DNA of 64,000 nt from a phage. Location: sequence record PZ452610.1; one strand, given 5' to 3'. The translations under genes and the position numbers were made by a program. The notes under the pieces are model-generated. The model searched no databases and was not told the DNA's origin. It was given only the letters and a program-made list of their open reading frames with translations. Of the stretch, positions 6,045-55,862 are shown piece by piece; the first letter of the stretch is position 1, and every line of letters begins with the position of its first letter.

Positions 6045-6074
6045 ATTATACTCTGCTCCCGAGAGTTTGTAAAC
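6045..6074 (-). promoter_or_regulatory. T4-type early promoter
   Basis: GTTTAC -35, 18 bp, TATAAT -10; upstream of start 6016. Confidence 0.55.
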
Positions 6075-7450: not shown

Positions 7451-7480
7451 ATAGTAACACCATCCTTGGTGTTTGTAAAC
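7451..7480 (-). promoter_or_regulatory. T4-type early promoter
   Basis: GTTTAC -35, 18 bp, TACTAT -10; upstream of alc-like start 7420. Confidence 0.5.
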
Positions 7481-8633: not shown

Positions 8634-8663
8634 ATTGTACCACAATCCTTGTGGTATGTAAAC
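8634..8663 (-). promoter_or_regulatory. T4-type early promoter (rnlA)
   Basis: GTTTAC -35, 18 bp, TACAAT -10; upstream of rnlA start 8607. Confidence 0.5.
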
Positions 8664-34881: not shown

Positions 34882-34911
34882 ACTATATCATAGTCCTACT
34901 TAGTTGTAAAC
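34882..34911 (-). promoter_or_regulatory. T4-type early promoter
   Basis: GTTTAC -35, 18 bp, TATAGT -10; upstream of start 34855. Confidence 0.5.
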
Positions 34912-39223: not shown

Positions 39224-40324
39224 TTACGCTGTGAAGATTTTATCCCACATCGCAACAACTGCATCTCGGTTATACTTCTTCCATACTGCTTCAGCACGTT
39301 TAACTCGAGCTTCGTATGTGTCAGTGAATTCTAATACAGCTTTTGTGTAAAGCGCAACTACTTCTTTCTTAGGAGTAGAGGAATCAATTTCTACACGCAC
39401 AGTATCTGGGTCGTATTCGAATGTCGCATGAGGATAATCCTTAAAAACTAACTGGATTACAGGGACACCTTTAGAGATGGCTTCAATAGAACTATTCTCT
39501 ACCGTACCTGTGTCAGGACACGTATTAATAAGTGCTTTAGCTGTTTTAAGACGTTCCATAATTTCACTGTGTGGAGCATCAATAATAACAGGATATTTAG
39601 CTGGTGGTGCCCATTTACTAGGACAGTATCCTGCACCATTTTCGCCTAGTGCTTTAATCGCTTCAAGAGCAACATCAGTACGACGCATTTTAGTGTCATA
39701 ACGTTGTGCACTAATAATCAGATCAGTCGCCGGAAGAACTTCAGGTTTCTCATTCAAACAAATAACCGGATAATCTTCGGCTTCAAACAACGGATTTGCT
39801 CGCCAATAATCATAATCAATTTTGTCAGTCAGACCTGAAGTCATATAACAATATTTACGTTCAAATTCACGGAAGGCTTTAGTAGGAGCATAACTCTTAC
39901 CACCATTCTTATGAATTTGAATAGTCTGGTCCCAAATTTGAACAATGCCACGAGATACCGGTTCAAACGGTGTTGCCATAAAATTCTTATGAACTTTAGA
40001 GAGACCTGCGTCTTTAATTGCCTGAACGGTTAGTTTAGTCGGTTCCATAGTAACAACGAAATCGTATTCATGGATGCCGGCTAGTTCAACAATCTTACGA
40101 GCCATAGTATAACTCATACCTAGACTGAATTTAGTCAGATGACCAACAGGATGATGATTAACCTTCCAATCACCAAATGTGTCATTATCAAAACCAATAT
40201 AATCAATATCGGCACCGATAGAAACTAAATATTTCAACACATTTAAATGTACTGCTTCAAGACCACCTTGTACACGGTCAGGATTAAATGGGACTGCACG
40301 AGATGGGATAAACATAACTTTCAT
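39224..40324 (-). CDS. glycosyltransferase, GT-B-like (candidate DNA sugar transferase)
   Basis: 366 aa; C-terminal TGTVENSSIEAISKGVPVIQ resembles the nucleotide-sugar binding motif of GT-B enzymes; sits between rIIA and gene 39. Confidence 0.45.
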   Translation of the reverse strand: MKVMFIPSRAVPFNPDRVQGGLEAVHLNVLKYLVSIGADIDYIGFDNDTFGDWKVNHHPVGHLTKFSLGMSYTMARKIVELAGIHEYDFVVTMEPTKLTVQAIKDAGLSKVHKNFMATPFEPVSRGIVQIWDQTIQIHKNGGKSYAPTKAFREFERKYCYMTSGLTDKIDYDYWRANPLFEAEDYPVICLNEKPEVLPATDLIISAQRYDTKMRRTDVALEAIKALGENGAGYCPSKWAPPAKYPVIIDAPHSEIMERLKTAKALINTCPDTGTVENSSIEAISKGVPVIQLVFKDYPHATFEYDPDTVRVEIDSSTPKKEVVALYTKAVLEFTDTYEARVKRAEAVWKKYNRDAVVAMWDKIFTA

Positions 40325-40351
40325 AATTAAGCCTTATTAAAATTAAAATGA

Positions 40352-40367
40352 AGCTCCCAAAGGAGCT
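40352..40367 (-). terminator. hairpin overlapping gene 39 stop (possible attenuator)
   Basis: AGCUCC-UUUG-GGAGCU followed by U-rich UCAUUUUAAUUUUAAU, then SD of glycosyltransferase gene. Confidence 0.3.
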
Positions 40368-42184
40368 TAGGACATCCATTCTTTACGAAGTTCTGAATCA
40401 TCACCCAACAACATTTCAAAGAGTTCTTTCCAATTTTCAGGAAGTTTAACTACGTCGTACACAGGGTTCTGAATCATTTCACGATATTCTGACTTTTCAA
40501 GGGAGCCTAATCCCTTGATGTATCGAATACTATGCTTAGGCAGTGTATCTTTAACTTCTTCATACTCAGCTACAGTATAAAACCATTTTTGAGCTTTGCC
40601 AATTTGTGCAATAATTACAGGCGTTTTAACAAAGCGAATACGTCCTTGTTCAAACAATTCAGGCCAATTACTAAAGAAAGCAAGCAAAGCCGGATAGATA
40701 CTTCCAAGACCGTCGTGATCTGCATCAGTCATAATTGCAATATTACGATAGTTCGTATTCTCTGCCTTTTCACCAAGAATAAGACCTGTGATAGCACAGA
40801 TATCAAAGAGCTCTTTGTTCTTCATCATATCAGCATATGACATACCCCAGCTATTCATCACCTTACCACGTAATGGGAATCCGCCGTGTAGTTCACGGTC
40901 ACGAACATCAATGAGATAACCAATTGCAGAATCACCTTCTGTTAAGAACAATGTCGTATCTGCATCTTTACCACATTGGTTAGCTTTAATATGCTTATGA
41001 ACCTTAGCTTTAGTTGCCTTTTTAGCTGCTTTAGTTTCTGCAGCCTTTTCTGCTGCCAATTTACGAGCTAATGCTGCTTCAACAATAGGCATAATCAAGG
41101 CTTCGTTTTTAAGAAGTGCCTGAGCAATTTTCTTAGCATCTAATTGGATATGATTACGAATATCACCATACGTTGACGTTAAACGTTCTTTAGTCTGAGA
41201 ATCAAAACGCATGTTGCTCATGTCTCTAATAAACATCAACATTGTGAGGCATTCTTTAACACGAGCTTTAGTGACTTCAATACCCTTATATTTCTTTTTA
41301 ATACCCGGCAAAAGATGTTCGCAGATATCGTCCATTACACATTCAACATGATGACCACCATTTTTAGTATGGATGTTATTCACATAAGTTAAATGACGGA
41401 AGCCATCTGGTGATGTTGTGAATGCTATAGAGACTTTATCATTTTCTTGAATGATGTTATCTTCACCAAATTGTTTAGCAAATCGTTTAAAATTACCATC
41501 AACCTTTTTACCATTAAATGTGAACTTGATATCAGGATAAACGACTGCCAATGTTTGAAGTCGGTCTAAAGTAATATCTAAATAAATTTGAGATAAATTA
41601 TGCTCTTCAAATGAAGAGAAATCAGGAGTGAAGATTACTTTAGTGCCTTTACCTTTAGATTTCTTAGAAGACCATGATTTGTTTTCCATTCCGTTTGAAC
41701 AGTTAACAGTGATTTCATTTTCGCCATCTGACGTGATGCCTGTAAACAACGTAGAGAAGATATTAGTTAAACTACTCCCGACGCCGTTCATACCACCAGT
41801 CTTGCGTTCAGAATCATCGCCAAAGTTACCACCAGCTTTTGGAATAGTCCAGGCTGCTACAGGCCCAGGAATTTGTTCACCTGTTTGGTCGGTAACTAAA
41901 CCTTGAGGAATACCACGTCCGTTATCTTCCACCGAAACTTGATTATTTTTAATTTGCACATCAATTTTATTTGCAAACTTAAATGATGTACGAATAGCTT
42001 CATCAACCGAGTTGTCAATAATCTCATCGATTAATTTAACCAGACCAGGAACATATTCAACTTGTTGATATTTACCAAACAAAAAACGCTCGTGGGCTTC
42101 TTTGGCCGAAGAACCAATATACATGCCACTACGTTTCTTAATATGTTCTACATCTGACAGTACCTTAATTTCATTTTTAATCAT
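40367..42184 (-). CDS. 39: DNA topoisomerase II large subunit (GyrB-like), single fused 39+60 polypeptide
   Basis: 605 aa; GHKL ATPase and toprim motifs; length equals T4 gp39 plus gp60, no gene 60 split or bypass. Confidence 0.9.
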   Translation of the reverse strand: MIKNEIKVLSDVEHIKKRSGMYIGSSAKEAHERFLFGKYQQVEYVPGLVKLIDEIIDNSVDEAIRTSFKFANKIDVQIKNNQVSVEDNGRGIPQGLVTDQTGEQIPGPVAAWTIPKAGGNFGDDSERKTGGMNGVGSSLTNIFSTLFTGITSDGENEITVNCSNGMENKSWSSKKSKGKGTKVIFTPDFSSFEEHNLSQIYLDITLDRLQTLAVVYPDIKFTFNGKKVDGNFKRFAKQFGEDNIIQENDKVSIAFTTSPDGFRHLTYVNNIHTKNGGHHVECVMDDICEHLLPGIKKKYKGIEVTKARVKECLTMLMFIRDMSNMRFDSQTKERLTSTYGDIRNHIQLDAKKIAQALLKNEALIMPIVEAALARKLAAEKAAETKAAKKATKAKVHKHIKANQCGKDADTTLFLTEGDSAIGYLIDVRDRELHGGFPLRGKVMNSWGMSYADMMKNKELFDICAITGLILGEKAENTNYRNIAIMTDADHDGLGSIYPALLAFFSNWPELFEQGRIRFVKTPVIIAQIGKAQKWFYTVAEYEEVKDTLPKHSIRYIKGLGSLEKSEYREMIQNPVYDVVKLPENWKELFEMLLGDDSELRKEWMS

Positions 42185-42206
42185 GTTGTCTCCTCGTTAT
42201 GAAGGT

Positions 42207-42233
42207 ATTCTATCATCCGAAATCTAAAGCAAA
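42207..42233 (-). promoter_or_regulatory. candidate MotA-dependent middle promoter (gene 39)
   Basis: minus strand TTTGCTTTA (perfect MotA box) + 12 bp + TAGAAT; about 20 nt upstream of gene 39 ATG. Confidence 0.5.
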
Positions 42234-42235
42234 AA

Positions 42236-42247
42236 GGGCCGAAGCCC
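42236..42247 (-). terminator. intrinsic terminator before gene 39
   Basis: GGGC-UUCG-GCCC followed by UUUUUGCUUU; 1 nt after stop of 42248-42670; U-run overlaps MotA box. Confidence 0.55.
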
Positions 42248-42670
42248 TTATTTAAATTTAATTTTCTGAAGTGCATCAATTGCAGCCAAACGCCCTTGTT
42301 CACTTTTAACTGTAATGACCACATCACCTGATACGATCACCGAACCATCAACAAATTCTATAGAGCCTTTTTTGAAATCGACAGCTGTATCTGGTTCCGG
42401 AACTTCTTCAAAGAATTTAAATTCTGCACCATAAATCAGAATATCACCTTGCATACTAATGATTGTACGTCCAGGTCCATCGGTTTCAGCGGCAATCATT
42501 GAAACACCGTAGCCAATCATCTCTTCTACAATAAAATCTCTTGATAATAAAACCGTATGCAGAGTAGTGTTAAGACGTTTACCAGTCGTATTAAGAATTC
42601 TCAAGAAATTATCTTCCTGTCCTTTGATAATACGATATTTCTTACCAACTTCAAAACCTTTAAAAGCCAT
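42248..42670 (-). CDS. hypothetical protein
   Basis: 140 aa ORF downstream of 42855-43283 block; followed by UUCG hairpin terminator. Confidence 0.45.
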   Translation of the reverse strand: MAFKGFEVGKKYRIIKGQEDNFLRILNTTGKRLNTTLHTVLLSRDFIVEEMIGYGVSMIAAETDGPGRTIISMQGDILIYGAEFKFFEEVPEPDTAVDFKKGSIEFVDGSVIVSGDVVITVKSEQGRLAAIDALQKIKFK

Positions 42671-42672
42671 AA

Positions 42673-42852
42673 TTAACCCTTCTTAAGTAAGTCGTAAAAA
42701 CCACCGTTCACATGTTTAGGAGCAGAAACCCGACGAGTAGACAGACGATGACATTCAGGGCAAACATCGTTTTCTCGTTCAGAAATCCTTTTAATTTTTT
42801 CATATTCATGACCACAATCTTCAGATTGACATTTATAATCGTATAACGGCAT
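42673..42852 (-). CDS. zinc-ribbon protein, 59 aa
   Basis: ATG 42850-42852 with SD AAGGAA; MPLYDYKCQSEDCGHEYEKIKRISERENDVCPECHRL... (CxxC...CxxC); under 60 aa so absent from track. Confidence 0.5.
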   Translation of the reverse strand: MPLYDYKCQSEDCGHEYEKIKRISERENDVCPECHRLSTRRVSAPKHVNGGFYDLLKKG

Positions 42853-42854
42853 TA

Positions 42855-43283
42855 TTATTCCTTAAAATGTGCTTTCAACATTTGATACAAAGACCATGCC
42901 TGGTCATTATTTTTGATAGTAATCGTCATCACAGGAAATTCAGACAATTCATCAAGTTCACCAGAATCTTGCTCTTCGGACGCTTGATATGGATTTCCAA
43001 CTTCGTCAAAGAACTCTGCTTCATTAGTGGAGAGCCAAATAAAGTTTTCATCAAGAATATCACCGCCTGTTGCGTATCCAACTGTGCCAGTAGATGTCAC
43101 AATTTTAGTAGGACGACCAAGATGGTCAACATCTAATACTTTAAATGGTTCCATGCCAAGACGTCGTGCATAAATCCCATTATCAGTGTGGTCTTTAATA
43201 AACTCTTCTTGGGCACGTTTATCTTTAAATTGGTACCATGAGTTAACGCGGAATTTATTAGCCATTAGTAAGTTTCCTTCCAA
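42855..43283 (-). CDS. hypothetical protein
   Basis: 142 aa acidic ORF. Confidence 0.5.
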
Positions 43284-43492
43284 TAAGTTGTACCGTTTTC
43301 AGTGATTTCACGGAAGATACCATAGATGGGCATTTCATCGCCAAGTTTTTCGTAAACGTAAACCACTTCGGTGTAGCATAAAAATTCGGTCCAGTTTTTC
43401 TGTACAACAACTAAATCAGGATTAAACAGAACATCTTCAAACTCATCGATGTTTGAATCGGTAGTTACGTTTTTAATGATTTGACGTTTCAT
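43265..43492 (-). CDS. hypothetical protein
   Basis: track start 43537 lies inside early promoter 43521-43549; ATG at 43492 with SD AAGAGGAGAA gives 75 aa. Confidence 0.5.
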
Positions 43493-43520
43493 AATATTCT
43501 CCTCTTGTTTTGATAGGTCT

Positions 43521-43549
43521 ATAGTATCATAGACCATAGTTGTTGTACA
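43521..43549 (-). promoter_or_regulatory. T4-type early promoter
   Basis: TGTACA -35, 17 bp, TACTAT -10; upstream of corrected start 43492. Confidence 0.5.
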
Positions 43550-44074
43550 TCATTTTAGCAAAATAAAATCAACTTGTTCTGCCAATGAACGTCTAAACAT
43601 TAATTGACAACTTCCGAGTATGAAATCAGGTGCTTCATAGACCGCGATGTAGTATCCTTTAGCTTTCAAGAGTTCAACATCCACTTGGTCATCAAACCAT
43701 GCATAAACCGCGTCAACACTTTCAAATCCAAAATAGAACCCTTGAGCCCAATCTTCACTCAATTCAAATGTGTACTCAATTCTATGGTATCTTAAGATAT
43801 TTTGTTCAAGGAGTTTGTCTTCATTTACTGTAGGACGATTAGGGACATTATAGTTGTCGCCGTGATGGTAGAAGTTACCTGAGAGTATTCCATGCTTATC
43901 AAGGAATTCCCATGTTTCTTCAGAGTTGTCGGTGCCTGACCAACCGTACGGCGAGCGAGGTTCTTTATTCCAAGAGGTTTCCCAAATTCTGACGGCTTTA
44001 CCGTCTTCGATAGCAATTCCTGGTAATGATTCACGTTGAGTACAAAAACTACGTTCTACGCGGTAAACTAACAT
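43550..44074 (-). CDS. hypothetical protein
   Basis: 174 aa ORF with SD GAGGAG and early promoter 44101-44129. Confidence 0.55.
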   Translation of the reverse strand: MLVYRVERSFCTQRESLPGIAIEDGKAVRIWETSWNKEPRSPYGWSGTDNSEETWEFLDKHGILSGNFYHHGDNYNVPNRPTVNEDKLLEQNILRYHRIEYTFELSEDWAQGFYFGFESVDAVYAWFDDQVDVELLKAKGYYIAVYEAPDFILGSCQLMFRRSLAEQVDFILLK

Positions 44075-44100
44075 ATTATTCTCCTCTGGTTGATATGGTT

Positions 44101-44129
44101 ATAATATCAAATCCAGAGGAGAAGTAAAC
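44101..44129 (-). promoter_or_regulatory. T4-type early promoter
   Basis: GTTTAC -35, 17 bp, TATTAT -10; upstream of start 44074. Confidence 0.55.
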
Positions 44130-44133
44130 AACT

Positions 44134-44553
44134 TTATGCGAAAGCAGCTGGGCTATATTTTTTAATTTGGAATTCAGGAACTACCATGAACTGTCCAGCG
44201 AAAACAATGTTATAAAGCTTAACACCATCTTCTACCCAACGGTCGCTAATAAATCCGGCGATTTGCTTAGTTTTCCACGGTGTTCCATCAGTTGCCGCAG
44301 CAATAGTGAATTCATGGTCTTTTTCAACAGAAACTGATCTGCATAATCCCCATTTGAACGCTTTTTCTTCCGGTTCAATGAATTGGCTTTTAACGTAACC
44401 AATGTTACCATCAGCGTCACGAACTTTAACTTCGTTACGTCCAAAAACAGGATCACTCACAGAAAGAACTTCAACCAACTTCCCGGCAACTTTAGAGCGA
44501 GAAGCAACAGATACATATACGTAATCACCTGTAGAGAGATTTACAATATTCAT
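44134..44553 (-). CDS. hypothetical protein, paralog family member A
   Basis: 139 aa; shares N-terminal VS.ASRSK.AGKLVEV and C-terminal GFISD.WVEDG.KLYNIVF.G.F.VV with 44563-45018. Confidence 0.55.
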   Translation of the reverse strand: MNIVNLSTGDYVYVSVASRSKVAGKLVEVLSVSDPVFGRNEVKVRDADGNIGYVKSQFIEPEEKAFKWGLCRSVSVEKDHEFTIAAATDGTPWKTKQIAGFISDRWVEDGVKLYNIVFAGQFMVVPEFQIKKYSPAAFA

Positions 44554-44562
44554 AATAATTCC

Positions 44563-45018
44563 TTAAGCTTTACGAGGAGACACATAGCGAGTGATTTCAG
44601 ATTCTTTAACAACTCGGAAGTCACCTAAGAATACGATATTGTATAACTTTTCACCATCTTCAACCCATTGGTCACTAATGAAGCCACACATGGTATCAGT
44701 TGTGCTTGGATAGCCGTATTCATCGATGAAGTCAAATTCTTTATCAGTCTGGAATTCAACACCTTTACACAAGGCCCATTTGAACTGTGCATTAGGTTCA
44801 GTAGAAGCAAAATGAGCGCTCACATGAGTTTCCAAGAATTTAGGACTTACGTAAGCATATTGAGTATCCTGACGTCCAAAACTAGGAATGATTCGAACTT
44901 TAACTTCTTTAATACGTCCCATGCCATTTGTGCGAAGTCCGACAACTTCAACCAGACGACCTGCGGCTTTAGAACGGGATGCAGTTGATACACGCTTAAT
45001 TTCACCAATAGTAATCAT
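44563..45018 (-). CDS. hypothetical protein, paralog family member B
   Basis: 151 aa; paralogous to 44134-44553; early promoter 45047-45075. Confidence 0.55.
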   Translation of the reverse strand: MITIGEIKRVSTASRSKAAGRLVEVVGLRTNGMGRIKEVKVRIIPSFGRQDTQYAYVSPKFLETHVSAHFASTEPNAQFKWALCKGVEFQTDKEFDFIDEYGYPSTTDTMCGFISDQWVEDGEKLYNIVFLGDFRVVKESEITRYVSPRKA

Positions 45019-45046
45019 AATTTCTCTCTTTGTTTAAATTGAATTC

Positions 45047-45075
45047 ACTATACTCCATCCATCCTTGGATGTACA
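45047..45075 (-). promoter_or_regulatory. T4-type early promoter
   Basis: TGTACA -35, 17 bp, TATAGT -10; upstream of start 45018. Confidence 0.5.
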
Positions 45076-45078
45076 ACA

Positions 45079-45573
45079 TTAATTTAGAATATTAACCACA
45101 GCACTACGTGGAACTACACTAAAATCACCTGCATGAACAACGTTCAGAAGTTCAACACCGTCTTCAATCCACTGGTCAGTTACCCAGCCACTTACCGGTC
45201 CAGCGAATGGTCGACGAATTGAAACTGCTTTACACAACAAGTCTGTAGGCTCGATAGGTTTAACTAAAGTACCGTACATAGAAGCGATGTCCATATCAAA
45301 GTGGAGACCATCTTTAACAGGTGCTTCTCCAATCAACAGTTCAAAGTCGGTGCTTGGAAGGGCGGTAGTAGAAATTGTACCATATGAATTTTTAATTTCT
45401 AAGAATAACCAAGGGCCTTCAGCTTGTTTGATGAAGTTAACAATAGTGAAACTATTACCTTGAGTGGCACCTAAAATTTCACAAAACTTTTCATAAGCTC
45501 GCACTGAAGCACCGTACCAGTTGATTTGTTTTTCGTCTTTCAGGATGTAAGTGGCCGTAGTATTGATATTCAT
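45079..45573 (-). CDS. hypothetical protein, paralog family member C
   Basis: track start 45615 is TTG inside promoter; ATG at 45573 gives 164 aa; C-terminus VTDQWIEDGVELLNVVHAGDFSVVP matches family motif. Confidence 0.5.
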   Translation of the reverse strand: MNINTTATYILKDEKQINWYGASVRAYEKFCEILGATQGNSFTIVNFIKQAEGPWLFLEIKNSYGTISTTALPSTDFELLIGEAPVKDGLHFDMDIASMYGTLVKPIEPTDLLCKAVSIRRPFAGPVSGWVTDQWIEDGVELLNVVHAGDFSVVPRSAVVNILN

Positions 45574-45603
45574 AATGGTTTCCAGTTTGGTTAAGATAGA
45601 AAG

Positions 45604-45633
45604 ATTATACTCCAACCATCCTTGGTTGTAAAC
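45604..45633 (-). promoter_or_regulatory. T4-type early promoter
   Basis: GTTTAC -35, 18 bp, TATAAT -10; upstream of corrected start 45573. Confidence 0.55.
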
Positions 45634-45638
45634 TGTTT

Positions 45639-46316
45639 TTATCGCTGTTTTACACTTAACGGGTCAGGATTCTCAGGGACATCTTCAAGGCCAAGCGCAT
45701 AACGCTGAGCATATTTTAACATCAAAATATCTTTAGCACAATCATGAATACTATCATGGGCAACGAATCCTTTTAGCGTACCCATCGGTAATGGACACAT
45801 ACTTAATCCTCGTGTCAACGAGTAAGCTTCGATTGCTGTACGAATATCACGTTGAGCCCAGAATTTAACCGGTTCTAATTTATCAGTATCAATATCTGGT
45901 TCAAGAACACCTTCATCACGATAGAGGTCACGAATCAAATCGACCAAGATCGGGAAGTCAAAGCTCATACCACGGCACCACATCTGTGATTTCCATTGGT
46001 CAACTTTATTAGCTCGACAATAATCTAAAAAGATTTTAATGCCTTCAAGCGTAGTGACATCGTCTTCAGACGGAGCCAAGTTTTTACGTGCTTCAGCCGA
46101 TTGTTCTTTCCACCATTTCATAGTGGATTTAGCGAAAACTCGCTTCCCTTTCTGAGAAGCTAAATTAAATTTAATTCGCTTACCTCGTTGAACAAGTTCT
46201 TCAAATGATTCAACAACTTCAGGGTCGGAATTATATGCAATAACCGCAAGGTCAATAACAGCCGCTTTTGATGTATTGCCGAATGTTTCAAAGTCTATAA
46301 TAACATCAGTGCTCAT
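45639..46316 (-). CDS. dexA: exonuclease A (DnaQ-like 3'-5' exonuclease)
   Basis: 225 aa; DEDD motifs (IIDFETFG ...); T4 dexA position next to dda. Confidence 0.85.
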   Translation of the reverse strand: MSTDVIIDFETFGNTSKAAVIDLAVIAYNSDPEVVESFEELVQRGKRIKFNLASQKGKRVFAKSTMKWWKEQSAEARKNLAPSEDDVTTLEGIKIFLDYCRANKVDQWKSQMWCRGMSFDFPILVDLIRDLYRDEGVLEPDIDTDKLEPVKFWAQRDIRTAIEAYSLTRGLSMCPLPMGTLKGFVAHDSIHDCAKDILMLKYAQRYALGLEDVPENPDPLSVKQR

Positions 46317-46325
46317 AATTTTCTC

Positions 46326-47639
46326 TCAAATAAAATGGACGTCAAAACGACCACGAGTCGTGCCGACATACAATAACTGTTTAGCTAATTCTGAATCGGC
46401 ATAATGGATACACGGTGTATAAACAAAGGCCGTGTCAACAGACATACCCTGGGCCTTATGGAAGGTTGATACAGGTAGTGCCTTCACCTTAGTGAACATA
46501 CGTTTAGCATCCCAGAATTCGCTCCATGGAGCTTTACCGCCTTTATTCCAGAATTTATATGTTTCTGCGGTCTTAGCCAAAAACAAATTGAATTTATAAA
46601 GCTCTTCTTCAGAAGAAATAACCTTTATATCTTCACGGATGTATTCTTCATCATCACTATATGTTTCTACTGTAAGATTCCAGTATCGTATCATATATTC
46701 GCCTGAAACACCGCGTGCTTTAACGAATGTAGACGTTTCTACAGCATCTCGAATACGAACGAATTGCCCGTTATTGAAAAGCATTTCGGTCATATTTTTG
46801 CCATCTAGCTTATATGTCTTAGTAAATGGCTCTTGTAGAACAATGACTTCGTCTTTAATAAATGGCTTTTCTGTTTCGAGAAGTTTTCGGCGAATAATTG
46901 AATTTAACTTGTCCACCGACTTATTTGTGAATGCCATCATTCGATTTTCGAAAAGGTCTTCAGGAGTTTTAACGACGTTAAAATAGTTCATCATATACGA
47001 TTTAAGGTCTGTATATCCATGAACACCGTGCCCATCAACTACTTTATCGTAAATCCATTTGCCATTACGAATATCAGTCGCAACATCAATAATTGGCGCA
47101 TTGCTACGTTTAACTTCTGTAAGGTTGCATTGCACGAAGTCTTTGTGAGTGAAGAAAGGACTTAGATACGCAGTTGATTCGCCTGGGTCTACCGGACGAA
47201 TCTGGCATCGGTCGCCGATTCCAATTACTGTGCACCATTTAGGGATACTAGCTAACATTATTTTAAACAGAGGACGGTCGCACATTGACGCTTCATCAAA
47301 TAACAGTACACGACACAAGGCTAAGTCGGGAACCTTTTTCTGTTCAAACAATACGTTTTCTTCGTATGTAGTTGGGTTGATTTTAAGAATGCTATGAATA
47401 GTCGATGCTTCTTGACCCGCAAGTTTGCTTAGAACCTTTTTAGCAGCATGTGTAGGGGCTGCTAAAATAATACCTGATTCTCCGGCAGAAATAAGAGCTT
47501 CAACGATGAATCTAGTAAGGGTTGTTTTACCTGTACCAGCAGGCCCATTAATAGTTACGTGATGTTTCTTTTCTTTAATAGCGTTCATAACAACGTTGAA
47601 GGCGTTTTTCTGGCCTTCAGTCAAATCATCAAATGTCAT
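46326..47639 (-). CDS. dda: Dda DNA helicase (SF1B)
   Basis: 437 aa; near-identical to T4 Dda (GPAGTGKTT, start MTFDDLTEGQKNAFN). Confidence 0.95.
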   Translation of the reverse strand: MTFDDLTEGQKNAFNVVMNAIKEKKHHVTINGPAGTGKTTLTRFIVEALISAGESGIILAAPTHAAKKVLSKLAGQEASTIHSILKINPTTYEENVLFEQKKVPDLALCRVLLFDEASMCDRPLFKIMLASIPKWCTVIGIGDRCQIRPVDPGESTAYLSPFFTHKDFVQCNLTEVKRSNAPIIDVATDIRNGKWIYDKVVDGHGVHGYTDLKSYMMNYFNVVKTPEDLFENRMMAFTNKSVDKLNSIIRRKLLETEKPFIKDEVIVLQEPFTKTYKLDGKNMTEMLFNNGQFVRIRDAVETSTFVKARGVSGEYMIRYWNLTVETYSDDEEYIREDIKVISSEEELYKFNLFLAKTAETYKFWNKGGKAPWSEFWDAKRMFTKVKALPVSTFHKAQGMSVDTAFVYTPCIHYADSELAKQLLYVGTTRGRFDVHFI

Positions 47640-47947
47640 CGTAAAGTCCCTGCAATTGGAATACTAACAATACGGCCTGTGTCCAGGATTCGTTGATACA
47701 ATCTTTGCGTCTCCGCATCTAGTTTAACGTGTTTCATTTCAAGCTTATTAAACCAGAACTTACGCGGAGTTTCGACCATTCTTAGAACTCCCATTTTTAA
47801 ATCTGTTTTATACTGTGTTTTCAAAGTATCGAAAACTTTATCTGCAATATCCTTTCTAAAAAATACTGCAGGACGATGCTCATCAAGTGGAACCGGGACA
47901 GTAAATCCTTCCATATCTCGATAAACTATTGCATATACATAAACCAT
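47636..47947 (-). CDS. hypothetical protein
   Basis: 103 aa ORF coupled to dda. Confidence 0.5.
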   Translation of the reverse strand: MVYVYAIVYRDMEGFTVPVPLDEHRPAVFFRKDIADKVFDTLKTQYKTDLKMGVLRMVETPRKFWFNKLEMKHVKLDAETQRLYQRILDTGRIVSIPIAGTLR

Positions 47948-47949
47948 AA

Positions 47950-48696
47950 TTAACCTTTAATCAGTTGGAATAATGATGCGCTAAGTGGTAAGCCACGTTT
48001 CAATTTTAATTTACCAATGAAACCAATCTTTTCAAAACGTTGCAGACCTTGGATAACTTTATCATATGTATCGAAAAGCGATTCAGCGTCAGTTAATTTA
48101 GTTTTAGTTTTCCAGTCAGAGCCTTTAAGAAGAACGTTGAGTTTAGTAAGTTCATGGCCTTCTGCTTGATGTGAGCCATTAATGCGTGCTTTCAAAGCAA
48201 CAATTCTAAGTTTAGATTCGTTAGATAAAGGTTGATTTTTCATCATGTTCGCCATATGCTTAACACGATTTTCACGTTTTGCTCGGATTTTTAAAATAGT
48301 ACCATAAACCTTTTTGATTTGGGCCCATTTCTTCTCGTCGAGATTAAGTTTCTCTACTTTACGGGCCGAAGGATTGGCGATACGTCTTGCAATGGCATCG
48401 CGTTTCCCAATAAGCTCTTCTAATGTTAAATCAGAACGAGCGGTGTTATATTTTTTCTTAACCGGGATAACATTACCTTTAATGTAGCCTATATCATTAT
48501 TAAAACGTTCTAAGGATAATTTCTCACCTTCAACAGAGTTATTAAAAGATTCACCTGAGTAAGCGCAGACCTTTTGATCAAGAATGTTTTTAAGGTAATT
48601 AAAGTCTAAGTTAAAATCCTTAGAGCGTCTCTTCGCAGAAGCTCTGGTGTGGTCAAGACGACGATTGATTTTGTTAATTTTATTATTTGATAACAT
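47950..48696 (-). CDS. basic protein, Srd-like by position
   Basis: 248 aa Lys/Arg-rich ORF at T4 srd position between dda and modB; early promoter 48747-48774. Confidence 0.35.
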   Translation of the reverse strand: MLSNNKINKINRRLDHTRASAKRRSKDFNLDFNYLKNILDQKVCAYSGESFNNSVEGEKLSLERFNNDIGYIKGNVIPVKKKYNTARSDLTLEELIGKRDAIARRIANPSARKVEKLNLDEKKWAQIKKVYGTILKIRAKRENRVKHMANMMKNQPLSNESKLRIVALKARINGSHQAEGHELTKLNVLLKGSDWKTKTKLTDAESLFDTYDKVIQGLQRFEKIGFIGKLKLKRGLPLSASLFQLIKG

Positions 48697-48746
48697 AATA
48701 TTTTCCTCTGTCTTACGGACGTTAAGGTCATTTAGCTGATAAGCTT

Positions 48747-48774
48747 ATAATATCATGCCCTCAGGTAGTGTACA
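48747..48774 (-). promoter_or_regulatory. T4-type early promoter
   Basis: TGTACA -35, 16 bp, TATTAT -10; upstream of start 48696. Confidence 0.45.
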
Positions 48775-48849
48775 CTCTTTTTTCGTAAAATGCTTTAATT
48801 TTTTATGTGTTATAATGGTTCTGAGTTCCATCCGGTTATTCCAATTCAG

Positions 48850-49458
48850 TCAGTAACTGACAATAGACAGATTCCAGATTGTATAACGTCCATCTTGAAT
48901 AATAGAATCTACACGCAGTGTAGTCCCTATAGGGAGCATAAATTCACATTCGTCAGATATAAGTCTAGCATTAGACCGTCTTGTCGCTTCAGGGAAAGCT
49001 CCATTGAACTCACAAGATGGCGCAGCCAGAATCATGTTAAGCATATGTTCACGGAAGTTGAAAGCAAATGGTGCATCTTTGATGCAGAACATATTAAATG
49101 TTCCGTAAAAATTATACGAAGCAAAGTTACGTGCTACACCGAACACTGGACTGAAGCTCATTACTCTGTCAAATTTAATAATACTACCAATGCCTTTATC
49201 ATCAAGTGTAGCCATAGTTTTCTTAGAGATTCCACGATACATTGTCTCAGGAACAGAAGACGACCAATTTCTACGAACAATTGCACTTAAATCTTTTTGG
49301 ATGCTATCAGGCTTGTTTTCCATACACTGCCATAGTACACTTTGTTCAATGTCACTGAATTGCTCATCGATTTTGTACTGAAGCATATCTTGATAATCCG
49401 GGCATTGAGCACGACGAACCATTTCTTCAATTTCACACTCGTTATACGGCATAAACAT
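48850..49458 (-). CDS. modB: ModB-like ADP-ribosyltransferase
   Basis: 202 aa; R (MYRGIS), S-x-S and E-x-E (DECEF) ART motifs; paralog of adjacent modA. Confidence 0.6.
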   Translation of the reverse strand: MFMPYNECEIEEMVRRAQCPDYQDMLQYKIDEQFSDIEQSVLWQCMENKPDSIQKDLSAIVRRNWSSSVPETMYRGISKKTMATLDDKGIGSIIKFDRVMSFSPVFGVARNFASYNFYGTFNMFCIKDAPFAFNFREHMLNMILAAPSCEFNGAFPEATRRSNARLISDECEFMLPIGTTLRVDSIIQDGRYTIWNLSIVSY

Positions 49459-49486
49459 TTAGGTTTCTCCTGTGGTTGATAAAGGT

Positions 49487-49515
49487 ATAGTATCATCATC
49501 GGAAGAGTTTGTACA
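49487..49515 (-). promoter_or_regulatory. T4-type early promoter (modB)
   Basis: TGTACA -35, 17 bp, TACTAT -10; upstream of modB start 49458. Confidence 0.5.
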
Positions 49516-50097
49516 CTAAAAATTCAACATTTTCAAATGAATGATTTTGTATAATCGAGATAAAGGGTCATATTCTAAGTCTTCAATTTCCACAATCTCA
49601 AATCTAGAGATACCTGAGACCATGTACTCTTGTTCAGATTCAATCATATCTAGGACGTCAACACGCGTTTCTTCCATAACATGCTTAGGGTTCTTTCCGG
49701 CGAGTACAATGTTAATCATGTTTTGGTAGTAATCAAAAATGAATGGAGCATTCCTGAGACTAAGAATAGTGTACGTCTGATACTCCCAACTCCCAGAGAA
49801 TTGACGAGCTGTACTGAAATCAGTTGTGAACGATGTTACTCGTCCAGGAGACCAATGGCATCCAACAGAAAGAAGGGAAAGACGTTCTACTTCTTCTGGA
49901 GTTACACCACGGTAGAGTTCTACTGGTACTGTAGAAGACATATGCTTACGAACAAGATGGTCTAATTCATAGTGGAAATCCGGGTCTTCCTTAGAATCGG
50001 TGCAAGCCCAGAGAATGTTTTGTTCTTGGCGGGTGAATTTGCTATCAATCAGATTTGTTAGGTATTCGCGTTCTTGAAGTTCAGATTGACATGTCAT
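49516..50097 (-). CDS. modA: ModA-like ADP-ribosyltransferase
   Basis: 193 aa; ELYRGV, TSFTTD, ESEQEY motifs; early promoter 50125-50153. Confidence 0.6.
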   Translation of the reverse strand: MTCQSELQEREYLTNLIDSKFTRQEQNILWACTDSKEDPDFHYELDHLVRKHMSSTVPVELYRGVTPEEVERLSLLSVGCHWSPGRVTSFTTDFSTARQFSGSWEYQTYTILSLRNAPFIFDYYQNMINIVLAGKNPKHVMEETRVDVLDMIESEQEYMVSGISRFEIVEIEDLEYDPLSRLYKIIHLKMLNF

Positions 50098-55832: not shown

Positions 55833-55862
55833 ACTATACTATAGTCCATCTATAATGTAAAC
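55833..55862 (-). promoter_or_regulatory. T4-type early promoter (sp)
   Basis: GTTTAC -35, 18 bp, TATAGT -10; upstream of sp start 55803. Confidence 0.5.

Follow-up and report, generated by a model that had tools for sequence, protein, structure and literature searches.

The window analysed here, a 64,000-nucleotide stretch of phage DNA, shows 100% DNA identity with the E. coli O157 typing phages 3/6/13 (Mosigvirus), and its gene order is that of RB69: dexA, motB.1 (gene C), motB (gene B), a second motB (gene A), motB.2 and cef. Genes A, B and C are adjacent on the minus strand and encode related proteins, as a preliminary description of the locus had proposed. The block contains the following features:

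45604..45633, minus strand: early promoter of gene C (motB.1), GTTTAC-N18-TATAAT.
45079..45573, minus strand: gene C, motB.1 orthologue, 164 aa (RefSeq coding sequence with the same coordinates).
45319-45573, minus strand: N-terminal domain (NTD) of C, LSm/SH3-like, residues 1-85.
45082-45261, minus strand: C-terminal domain (CTD) of C, MotB-type, residues 105-164, preceded by a disordered linker.
45047..45075, minus strand: early promoter of gene B (motB), a weaker variant, TGTACA-N17-TATAGT.
44563..45018, minus strand: gene B, motB orthologue, 151 aa (PF17613, phrog_1671).
44833-45018, minus strand: NTD of B, KOW-like and basic, residues 1-62.
44566-44787, minus strand: CTD of B, residues 78-151.
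44554..44562, minus strand: B-A junction, 9 nt, GGAATTATT, with the Shine-Dalgarno sequence AAGGA overlapping the stop codon of B.
44134..44553, minus strand: gene A, second MotB copy, 139 aa (orthologue of RB69p010 and RB7_010).
44137-44367, minus strand: CTD of A, residues 63-139, preceded by a short linker.
44079..44123, minus strand: RNA hairpin of 18 bp, 3' of A, predicted from folding energy.
44101-44129, minus strand: promoter of motB.2.
43550..44074, minus strand: neighbouring motB.2 orthologue, 174 aa (phrog_1106).

The open reading frames of A (44134-44553) and B (44563-45018) are confirmed, whereas 45079-45615 is a mechanical open reading frame for C: the true start is the ATG at 45573 (RefSeq), not the position 45615 first given, where a TTG falls within the promoter spacer. 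The RB69 block (RB69p013/012 for motB.1, RB69p011 for motB, RB69p010 for the second motB and RB69p009 for motB.2) is identical in gene order, its proteins are 92-97% identical to those found here, and the intergenic promoters, the 9-nt junction and the hairpin preceding motB.2 are the same or nearly so. Two single-base insertions break motB.1 of the RB69 reference into ORFs of 132 and 29 aa, in contrast to the intact 164-aa gene of the window. In T4, motB.2 precedes motB.1, whereas here it follows A. The MotB-type genes occupy the early dexA-cef segment, directly 3' of a MotB.1-type gene, in 21 of 21 comparison loci as in the window. The block thus very probably corresponds to the motB.1, motB and second motB early genes of Mosigvirus, an RB69-like T-even phage. 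The trio is an already known, published family of small nucleoid-binding host-takeover proteins with one common CTD. Both this domain and the RB69 complement of two motB genes and one motB.1 were reported by Patterson-West et al. (2021; PMC7827196, section 3.2), so that the initial observation is real but not new.

How are the three proteins related? A and B match over their full length (43% identity, BLASTP E=2e-32), and C is related to them in its last 40-90 residues only (E=2e-11 for A-C and E=2e-10 for B-C). The preliminary description had allowed that the similarity might prove insignificant, or that these might be single-copy orthologues of known T4 genes; the similarity is significant, the three being true paralogues, but the second possibility applies by half, B and C having named T4 orthologues and the family, its common domain and the RB69 copy numbers having been published before. 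A simple tandem triplication does not describe the locus. C is a domain chimera (motB.1), B is motB and A lies outside all MotB orthologues. All three proteins pass the 25-bit gathering threshold of the Pfam motB model PF17613 (A 77.2, B 126.5 and C 35.3 bits), C aligning with the C-terminal part of the model only. Among PHROG families, B and A match phrog_1671 (E=4e-64 and E=1e-51, respectively) and C matches phrog_2333 over its full length (E=3.7e-80). Profile-profile comparison (hhalign) joins the MotB CTD to the MotB.1 CTD with 99.1% probability (E=4e-19) and gives no homology signal between the KOW NTD and the MotB.1 NTD, nor between either NTD and the CTD. MotB.2 (43550-44074), labelled a "transcriptional regulator" in some records, was considered as a fourth member and dropped; it is not claimed as part of the family because hhalign detected no profile-profile homology to any MotB domain.

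The conserved motifs follow the same division. The N-terminal signature VS..SRSK.AG.LVEV is present in A (VSVASRSKVAGKLVEV) and B (VSTASRSKAAGRLVEV) and absent from C; the version first proposed, VS.ASRSK.AGKLVEV, needs correction in B, where the K of AGKLVEV is R. The columns S14, R15, S16, K17, G20, V23 and E24 are invariant in 26 sequences. The C-terminal motif does occur in all three proteins, except that the final P of its VVP ending is K in B, and a search of all six frames across the 64-kb window confines it to A, B and C. Each carries the core D-Q/R-W-V/I-E-D-G-x-x-L-x-N-V/I-V. The 19-residue CTD core GWVTDQWIEDGVELLNVVH is unchanged at dS about 1; synonymous sites are near saturation, which rules out recent recombination as the source of this conservation, and the shared CTD is constrained at the protein level. 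An exhaustive HMMER search of 1.84 billion proteins with the CTD profile retrieved no more than 29 cluster representatives, and three large multi-repeat matches, Ig-like repeat proteins, were judged spurious. Only Straboviridae relatives were found in the BFVD fold library, a PDB sequence search with B returned nothing at E<=1, and NCBIfam and PADLOC searches gave nothing meaningful. AF2 models (pLDDT 83 for B and 81 for C) show two beta-barrels with a disordered linker between them. The predicted fold of the CTD looks SH3/Tudor-like rather than OB-like, whereas the HHpred assignment in the literature is a cold-shock-like OB-fold, the type of five-stranded barrel in which a helix separates strands 3 and 4 (PMC7827196).

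C is the orthologue of T4 motB.1, with a putatively LSm-like NTD fused to a MotB-type CTD. It aligns with intact T4 and RB7 MotB.1 and shows the pattern of the MotB.1 subfamily (a PTDLLC...GWVTDQWIEDGVELLNVVH CTD behind a non-KOW NTD), which is PHROG 2333 and "Category 2" of Patterson-West et al. (2021; PMC7827196). The intact 143-aa T4 MotB.1 is 46% identical to C and is built alike, with a predicted five-stranded barrel at the N-terminus ahead of the MotB-type CTD, but the linker of C contains an insertion of roughly 20 residues. [quoted passage not shown] A terminator-like site within C (45111-45096) was rejected, as it is a weak 5-bp stem inside the conserved C-terminal coding sequence. 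The T4 reference motB.1 (119 aa) has a one-base insertion found only in that record, NC_000866.4, and the real protein has 143 aa. Because of this insertion the annotated T4 MotB.1 is devoid of the conserved C-terminal core; the core would also be missing from any construct whose synthesis followed NC_000866.4, as in PMC12152347, which could account for negative MotB.1 results.

B is the orthologue of T4 MotB (NP_049626; PF17613; PHROG 1671), with 47% protein identity to it and 93% to RB69 MotB. The two share a KOW-like NTD with the SRSK motif followed by the CTD, and both genes lie immediately 3' of motB.1 with an early promoter at the same place. They differ in length (151 aa for B, 162 aa in T4), in the -35 element of the promoter (GTTGTAC here, GTTTAC in T4), in the second copy that directly follows B, and in charge, B being nearly neutral (pI 7.7, with an acidic CTD) and T4 MotB basic (pI 9.2). 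The T4 protein is made early and in abundance, and its tight binding to DNA shows no sequence preference. It is toxic to E. coli and, on DNA, co-purifies with H-NS and StpA; it also alters the H-NS footprint and de-represses H-NS-silenced genes (PMC6070864; PMC7827196). Its biochemistry is also treated by Son et al. (2021), as cited in PMC12152347 and PMC12449154. Knock-outs of T4 motB and motB.1 have mild or no laboratory phenotypes (PMC6070864; PMC12152347). By analogy with the T4 protein, B would bind DNA and affect H-NS, an activity that is predicted for Mosigvirus; since B is much less basic overall, the strength of its DNA binding may differ. The modelled basic KOW/SH3-like N-terminal barrel of B (net charge +8) is likely the DNA-binding part.

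A is an old, selected extra MotB lineage and not a recent copy of B. In a neighbour-joining tree it is sister to all MotB orthologues, branching outside them. At >=80% identity, A is present in about 208 of the 762 MotB-carrying records (~27%), which bears out the expected copy-number variation among T4-like phages. Every record examined has an unbroken reading frame for A, and dN/dS among its orthologues is 0.0-0.2 (0.0-0.3 across A, B and C), indicating purifying and not diversifying selection. Both domains are kept, with the SRSK..AG.LVEV signature and the CTD core, but the KOW domain retains little of its positive charge: the NTD of A carries about +1, compared with +2 to +10 in every MotB orthologue. 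A is probably a specialised rather than a redundant copy. Between Mosigvirus and RB3/RB7-like Tequatrovirus, dS is about 0.5 for motB and the second motB, as against >2 for the flanking dexA, and the two motB genes seem to have been exchanged together.

T4-type early promoters carry GTTTAC at -35, a 17-18 nt spacer and TAnnnT at -10, here on the minus strand, and such promoters had been assigned to B and C individually. The assignment is exact for C, whose promoter is canonical (11 of 12 consensus positions), belongs to a set of 25 GTTTAC..TAnnnT sites where 3.9 would be expected, and is conserved in loci L007 and L008. For B it is approximate: the promoter (GTTGTACA-N17-TATAGT at 45075-45047) agrees at 9 of 12 positions, reads GTTGTAC at -35 and escapes a GTTTAC pattern search. 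The same position holds canonical GTTTAC in T4 and RB7, and GTTTTAC/TATAAT in L007. The spacer and -10 of the B and C promoters agree at 21 of 22 positions, and a 45-nt direct repeat of 76% identity spans both promoter-leader regions. Palindromes are enriched in early-promoter spacers. A begins 9 nt past the stop codon of B, as described earlier, with AAGGA as Shine-Dalgarno sequence; no promoter-like site was found in a scan of this junction, which is identical in RB69, L006, L007 and L008. MotA-box middle promoters (TGCTT..TAnnnT) are absent from the minus strand near A, B and C, and an Rfam search of 40000-50000 gave two sub-threshold chance matches only, to Y_RNA and the S15 leader. The hairpin at 44079..44123 has a folding energy of -23.1 kcal/mol (z=-5.1), and 0 of 200 shuffles fold as well. 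The Shine-Dalgarno sequence of motB.2 forms the 3' arm, and the 5' arm falls in the motB.2 promoter, within its spacer and -10; RB69 and L006-L008 conserve both arms.

The view that these are early genes of the host-takeover type is upheld by their orthology to motB and motB.1, early genes of T4, and by the early-promoter motifs. Judging from the sequence, host sigma-70 RNA polymerase would transcribe the block immediately upon infection, starting at two related early promoters, of which the weaker stands before motB and the other before motB.1. A, with no promoter of its own, would be read from the B transcript, so that the co-transcription suggested initially is very likely, and its translation is probably coupled to that of B across the 9-nt junction.

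Why would one C-terminal barrel be combined with such different N-terminal domains? C would present the same C-terminal barrel as A and B behind an unrelated LSm-like barrel, and this putative docking or oligomerisation module may lead different nucleic-acid-binding heads to one target. It is possible, though rather unlikely, that MotB with its basic KOW head, the second MotB with a charge-neutral KOW head and MotB.1 with an LSm-like one assemble through it on a common target, such as H-NS-coated DNA or each other, with A tuning or restraining the toxic coating of DNA by MotB and not duplicating it. Alternatively, the block could be an anti-defence locus in the narrow sense, a role that the preliminary description suggested alongside host takeover, with diversified paralogues that each inhibit a different bacterial immune system. 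The variable copy number, the variable NTDs on a constant CTD and the dispensable early region in which the genes sit would suit such a role, and H-NS silencing of AT-rich foreign DNA can be viewed as defence (PMC7827196, discussion). Against it, the sole tested member binds DNA non-specifically and interferes with H-NS (PMC6070864; PMC7827196), all three genes are under purifying selection (dN/dS <= 0.31), and the shared domain is invariant, not fast-evolving; the absence of PADLOC matches is weak evidence in the same direction, because that library holds defence, not anti-defence, proteins. This role is improbable.

Less probable still is that the proteins are sequence-specific regulators of phage middle genes, the original sense of "modifier of transcription". 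Historic motB genetics (Pulitzer et al., 1985, as cited in PMC6070864), record annotations such as "MotB-like transcriptional regulator" and the presence of KOW domains in NusG and Spt5 speak for it, but knock-down of T4 motB left early and middle RNA unchanged and had only a mild effect on late RNA, and MotB has no sequence specificity (PMC6070864); the AF2 models contain no helix-turn-helix or other specific DNA-reading domain. A might be taken for a decaying, redundant motB duplicate without its own function, because about 73% of MotB-carrying phages, T4 among them, lack it, it has no promoter and most of its KOW charge is gone; this reading is scarcely credible given its intact frame, low dN/dS, retention in 208 records, preserved signature and core, and apparent exchange together with motB.

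The analysis mainly confirms published work, in which the MotB family comprises conserved, modular early host-takeover proteins of T-even phages; that RB69-like phages carry an extra MotB copy was known already. To this it adds that this copy belongs to an old lineage under selection whose KOW domain is de-charged, that it appears to move between genera as a unit with motB, and that the CTD, seemingly SH3/Tudor-like and not OB-like, is constrained at the protein level, with an invariant 19-residue core.

KOW, Tudor and chromo SH3-like barrels, such as those of NusG, Spt5 and the 53BP1 tandem Tudor, have no detectable sequence relationship to the MotB proteins (no PDB match), which give no sign of methyl-lysine reading or RNA polymerase binding. 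Closer in proposed outcome are the phage H-NS antagonists T4 Arn, T7 gp5.5 and LUZ24 gp4, by which H-NS silencing would likewise be relieved or remodelled early in infection (PMC7827196, discussion). Differently to MotB, these proteins bind H-NS directly.

Three consecutive ORFs occupy the minus strand of 44134-45615 and are referred to here as A, B and C:

44134-44553, minus strand: A, 139 aa, second motB copy (motB')
44563-45018, minus strand: B, 151 aa, motB
45079-45615, minus strand: C, mechanical ORF of motB.1, 164 aa from its real start (ATG 45573)

The preliminary description held that these adjacent genes encode related proteins, and the similarity among them far exceeds chance. A aligns with B along its full length at 43% identity (BLASTP, E=2e-32), and the alignment of C with A (E=2e-11) and with B (E=2e-10) is confined to the C-terminal 40-90 residues. 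In a profile-profile comparison the MotB-type and MotB.1-type C-terminal domains match with 99.1% probability (E=4e-19), and when the entire window was scanned in all six frames, the C-terminal motif turned up nowhere outside A, B and C. The shared motifs described earlier are essentially right, except that B reads AGRLVEV rather than AGKLVEV and ends in ...VVK rather than ...VVP. The start of C at 45615 has to be abandoned: the TTG there sits within the promoter spacer, and the real start is ATG 45573, as also annotated by RefSeq in the identical phage genome.

All three proteins pass the curated 25-bit cutoff of the Pfam motB family PF17613 (A, 77 bits; B, 126; C, 35). PHROG 1671, 'MotB-like transcriptional regulator', takes in A and B, and PHROG 2333 takes in C. 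Alignment with T4 and RB7, together with the annotated RB69 region, identifies B as motB (47% identical to T4 MotB), A as the second motB copy, the counterpart of RB69p010 and RB7_010, and C as motB.1. The next gene, motB.2 (43550-44074), is unrelated in sequence to the family. The surrounding 2.9 kb is 100% identical to Escherichia coli O157 typing phages 3, 6 and 13 (genus Mosigvirus) and 96-98% identical to many RB69/PhAPEC2-like phages. The relatedness of such genes is already known (Patterson-West et al., 2021; Kim et al., 2025). The former (PMC7827196) describes a C-terminal domain common to MotB and MotB.1, proposes that one gene probably arose by duplication of the other, and notes more than one copy in several phages; the latter (PMC12152347) describes the MotB.1 N-terminal domain.

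AlphaFold2 models of B (pLDDT 83) and C (pLDDT 81) each consist of two small beta-barrels and a disordered linker. The top structural matches are the 53BP1 tandem Tudor, PHF19 Tudor, Spt5/NusG KOW and chromo/PWWP/BAH domains, with no OB-fold protein among the top 60; matches in BFVD are Straboviridae relatives only.

Domain HMMs run on 21 loci give the following gene orders.

Gene order around motB in T4-like phages
Mosigvirus (this phage, RB69 and metagenomic loci L006-L008): dexA - motB.1 - motB - motB' - motB.2 - cef
T4: dexA - motB.2 - motB.1 - motB - cef
RB7/RB3: dexA - motB.2 - motB.1 - motB - motB' - x - cef
JS98-, VR- and other lineages: motB, preceded by a gene that combines a MotB.1-type C-terminal domain with a different N-terminal domain

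Across these loci motB is always directly preceded by a gene with a MotB.1-type C-terminal domain, and the A-type gene, where found, always lies directly downstream of motB. A-type genes, counted at 80% identity or more, occur in about 208 of the 762 MotB-carrying records of the phage collection. The LSm-type N-terminal domain of C is present in 308 of 741 records, the remainder matching the C-terminal domain only. In a neighbor-joining tree without bootstrap the A-type proteins form the sister group of all MotB orthologues and are not nested beside B, so that A is either an old paralogue or a fast-diverging copy. In RB7 (Tequatrovirus RB3; L003 3001-3903), motB and motB' retain 85-90% protein identity to Mosigvirus, with dS about 0.5-0.6, while dexA, motB.2 and cef are saturated against the window (dS >2), which suggests that motB and motB' were exchanged horizontally between genera as a two-gene cassette.

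Other parts of the region also vary. In Mosigvirus the motB.2 gene, with its own early promoter, follows the MotB genes; in T4 (L002 3162-3662), RB7 and JS98-like phages it lies upstream of motB.1. This promoter-plus-gene cassette has moved within the early region. Some phages encode hybrids (proteins P0164, P0175, P0186, P0200 and P0239) of a MotB-like KOW N-terminal domain (VS.LSRS..AG) and a MotB.1-type C-terminal domain (PTDLLC...GWVTDQWIEDGVELLNVVH), indicating that the halves of these proteins recombine freely. Adjoining the MotB block is another small early gene family of variable copy number: two GoF-like paralogues (42855-43265 and 42248-42670, minus strand; phrog_622, E=2e-39 and 1e-19) flank a 39.2-like zinc-ribbon gene (42673-42852), whereas T4 has one goF at that position.

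The T4 reference (NC_000866/AF158101; L002 2719-3151, minus strand) carries one extra G in motB.1 (ATTGGAAGATGG versus ATTGAAGATGG), which shortens the ORF to 119 aa, so that the conserved C-terminal core is lost. This G is absent from all 13 other T4-type records, which encode 143 aa (compare the T4-type locus L004, 1498-1929), and the 143-aa protein occurs on 256 contigs. Kim et al. (2025) synthesized motB.1 from NC_000866.4 and reported a 13.8 kDa monomer (PMC12152347); as the calculated mass of the 119-aa form, 13,804 Da, equals the reported one, they probably studied the truncated protein. In RB69 (NC_004928; L005 2501-2997), motB.1 is broken into RB69p013 and RB69p012, the latter of 29 aa, by two insertions of one base each that are absent from the window and other Mosigvirus. 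Patterson-West et al. (2021, PMC7827196) list for RB69 a pair of motB genes, a single motB.1 and a peptide of 29 aa; this 'Category 3 peptide' is the detached C-terminal tail of motB.1 rather than a separate gene.

How are the three genes expressed? Individual GTTTAC/TAnnnT promoters had been proposed for B and C. For C the match is exact, with a predicted canonical T4-type early promoter, GTTTAC-N18-TATAAT (45633-45604, minus strand). The putative B promoter, TGTACA-N17-TATAGT (45075-45047, minus strand), agrees at 9 of 12 consensus positions and has GTTGTAC in its -35 region, where T4 and RB7 have the canonical GTTTAC. The window contains 25 matches to the GTTTAC..TAnnnT pattern, where 3.9 would be expected, and 22 of the 25 lie on the minus strand. 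From spacer to -10 the two promoters are identical at 21 of 22 bases, and a 45-nt direct repeat (76% identity) spans both promoter-leader regions. No promoter is predicted for A, and no MotA-box middle promoter was found near the three genes. All Mosigvirus loci have exactly the same 9-nt B-A junction, GGAATTATT, in which an AAGGA Shine-Dalgarno overlaps the B stop; co-transcription of A from the B promoter, as first suggested, is the simplest reading of this arrangement.

Palindromes with arms of at least 5 bp are found in 6 of 22 GTTTAC..TAnnnT spacers, against 1.1 expected from shuffled and 1.6 from random genomic spacers (P<=0.003). Examples on the minus strand are 7451-7480, 8634-8663, 6045-6074, 45604-45633, 55833-55862 and 34882-34911, and a CCAAGGATGG-like core recurs in several spacers. 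The two differences between the C and B spacers compensate each other, so that the palindrome is preserved (AACCAaggaTGGTT versus ATCCAaggaTGGAT). Farther downstream, an 18-bp hairpin (44079-44123, minus strand; -23.1 kcal/mol, z=-5.1) has its 5' arm within the motB.2 promoter, in the spacer and -10, and the motB.2 Shine-Dalgarno as its 3' arm; the arms are conserved across RB69 and three metagenomic Mosigvirus loci. Read-through RNA from B-A would mask the motB.2 ribosome-binding site, an effect not expected of RNA begun at the motB.2 promoter, which would lack the 5' arm.

All three genes are kept by purifying selection, with dN/dS among orthologues of 0.0-0.2 (A), 0.13-0.30 (B) and 0.05-0.31 (C). 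The 19-residue MotB.1 core, GWVTDQWIEDGVELLNVVH, does not vary between genera whose synonymous sites approach saturation (dS about 1), so constraint acts on the protein; the same near-saturation rules out recent recombination as the source of the invariance. An exhaustive HMMER search of 1.84 billion proteins, with a profile built from the three C-terminal domains, retrieved only 29 cluster representatives. About 26 are genuine; these measure 101-251 aa, all carry the domain at their C-terminal end, and most have KOW-like N-termini.

Why would a phage keep two MotB copies? The KOW barrel of B has a net charge of +8, within the +2 to +10 of all MotB orthologues, and that of A only about +1; given this low charge and the shortest linker, A is probably specialized rather than redundant. 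C is acidic (pI 4.7), and deletion of T4 motB.1 gave no laboratory phenotype (PMC12152347). We offer purely as a hypothesis that the C-terminal barrel shared by the three proteins serves different nucleic-acid-binding heads as a common module for docking or oligomerization. T4 MotB itself (PMC6070864; PMC7827196; Son et al., 2021, cited via PMC12152347 and PMC12449154) is an abundant early protein, toxic in E. coli, that binds DNA, modified or unmodified, with no sequence preference. Its co-purification with H-NS and StpA occurs through DNA only. It alters the H-NS footprint, raises about 75 host genes (one third in the H-NS regulon), doubles burst size and is also reported to compact DNA. We infer that B acts as T4 MotB does.
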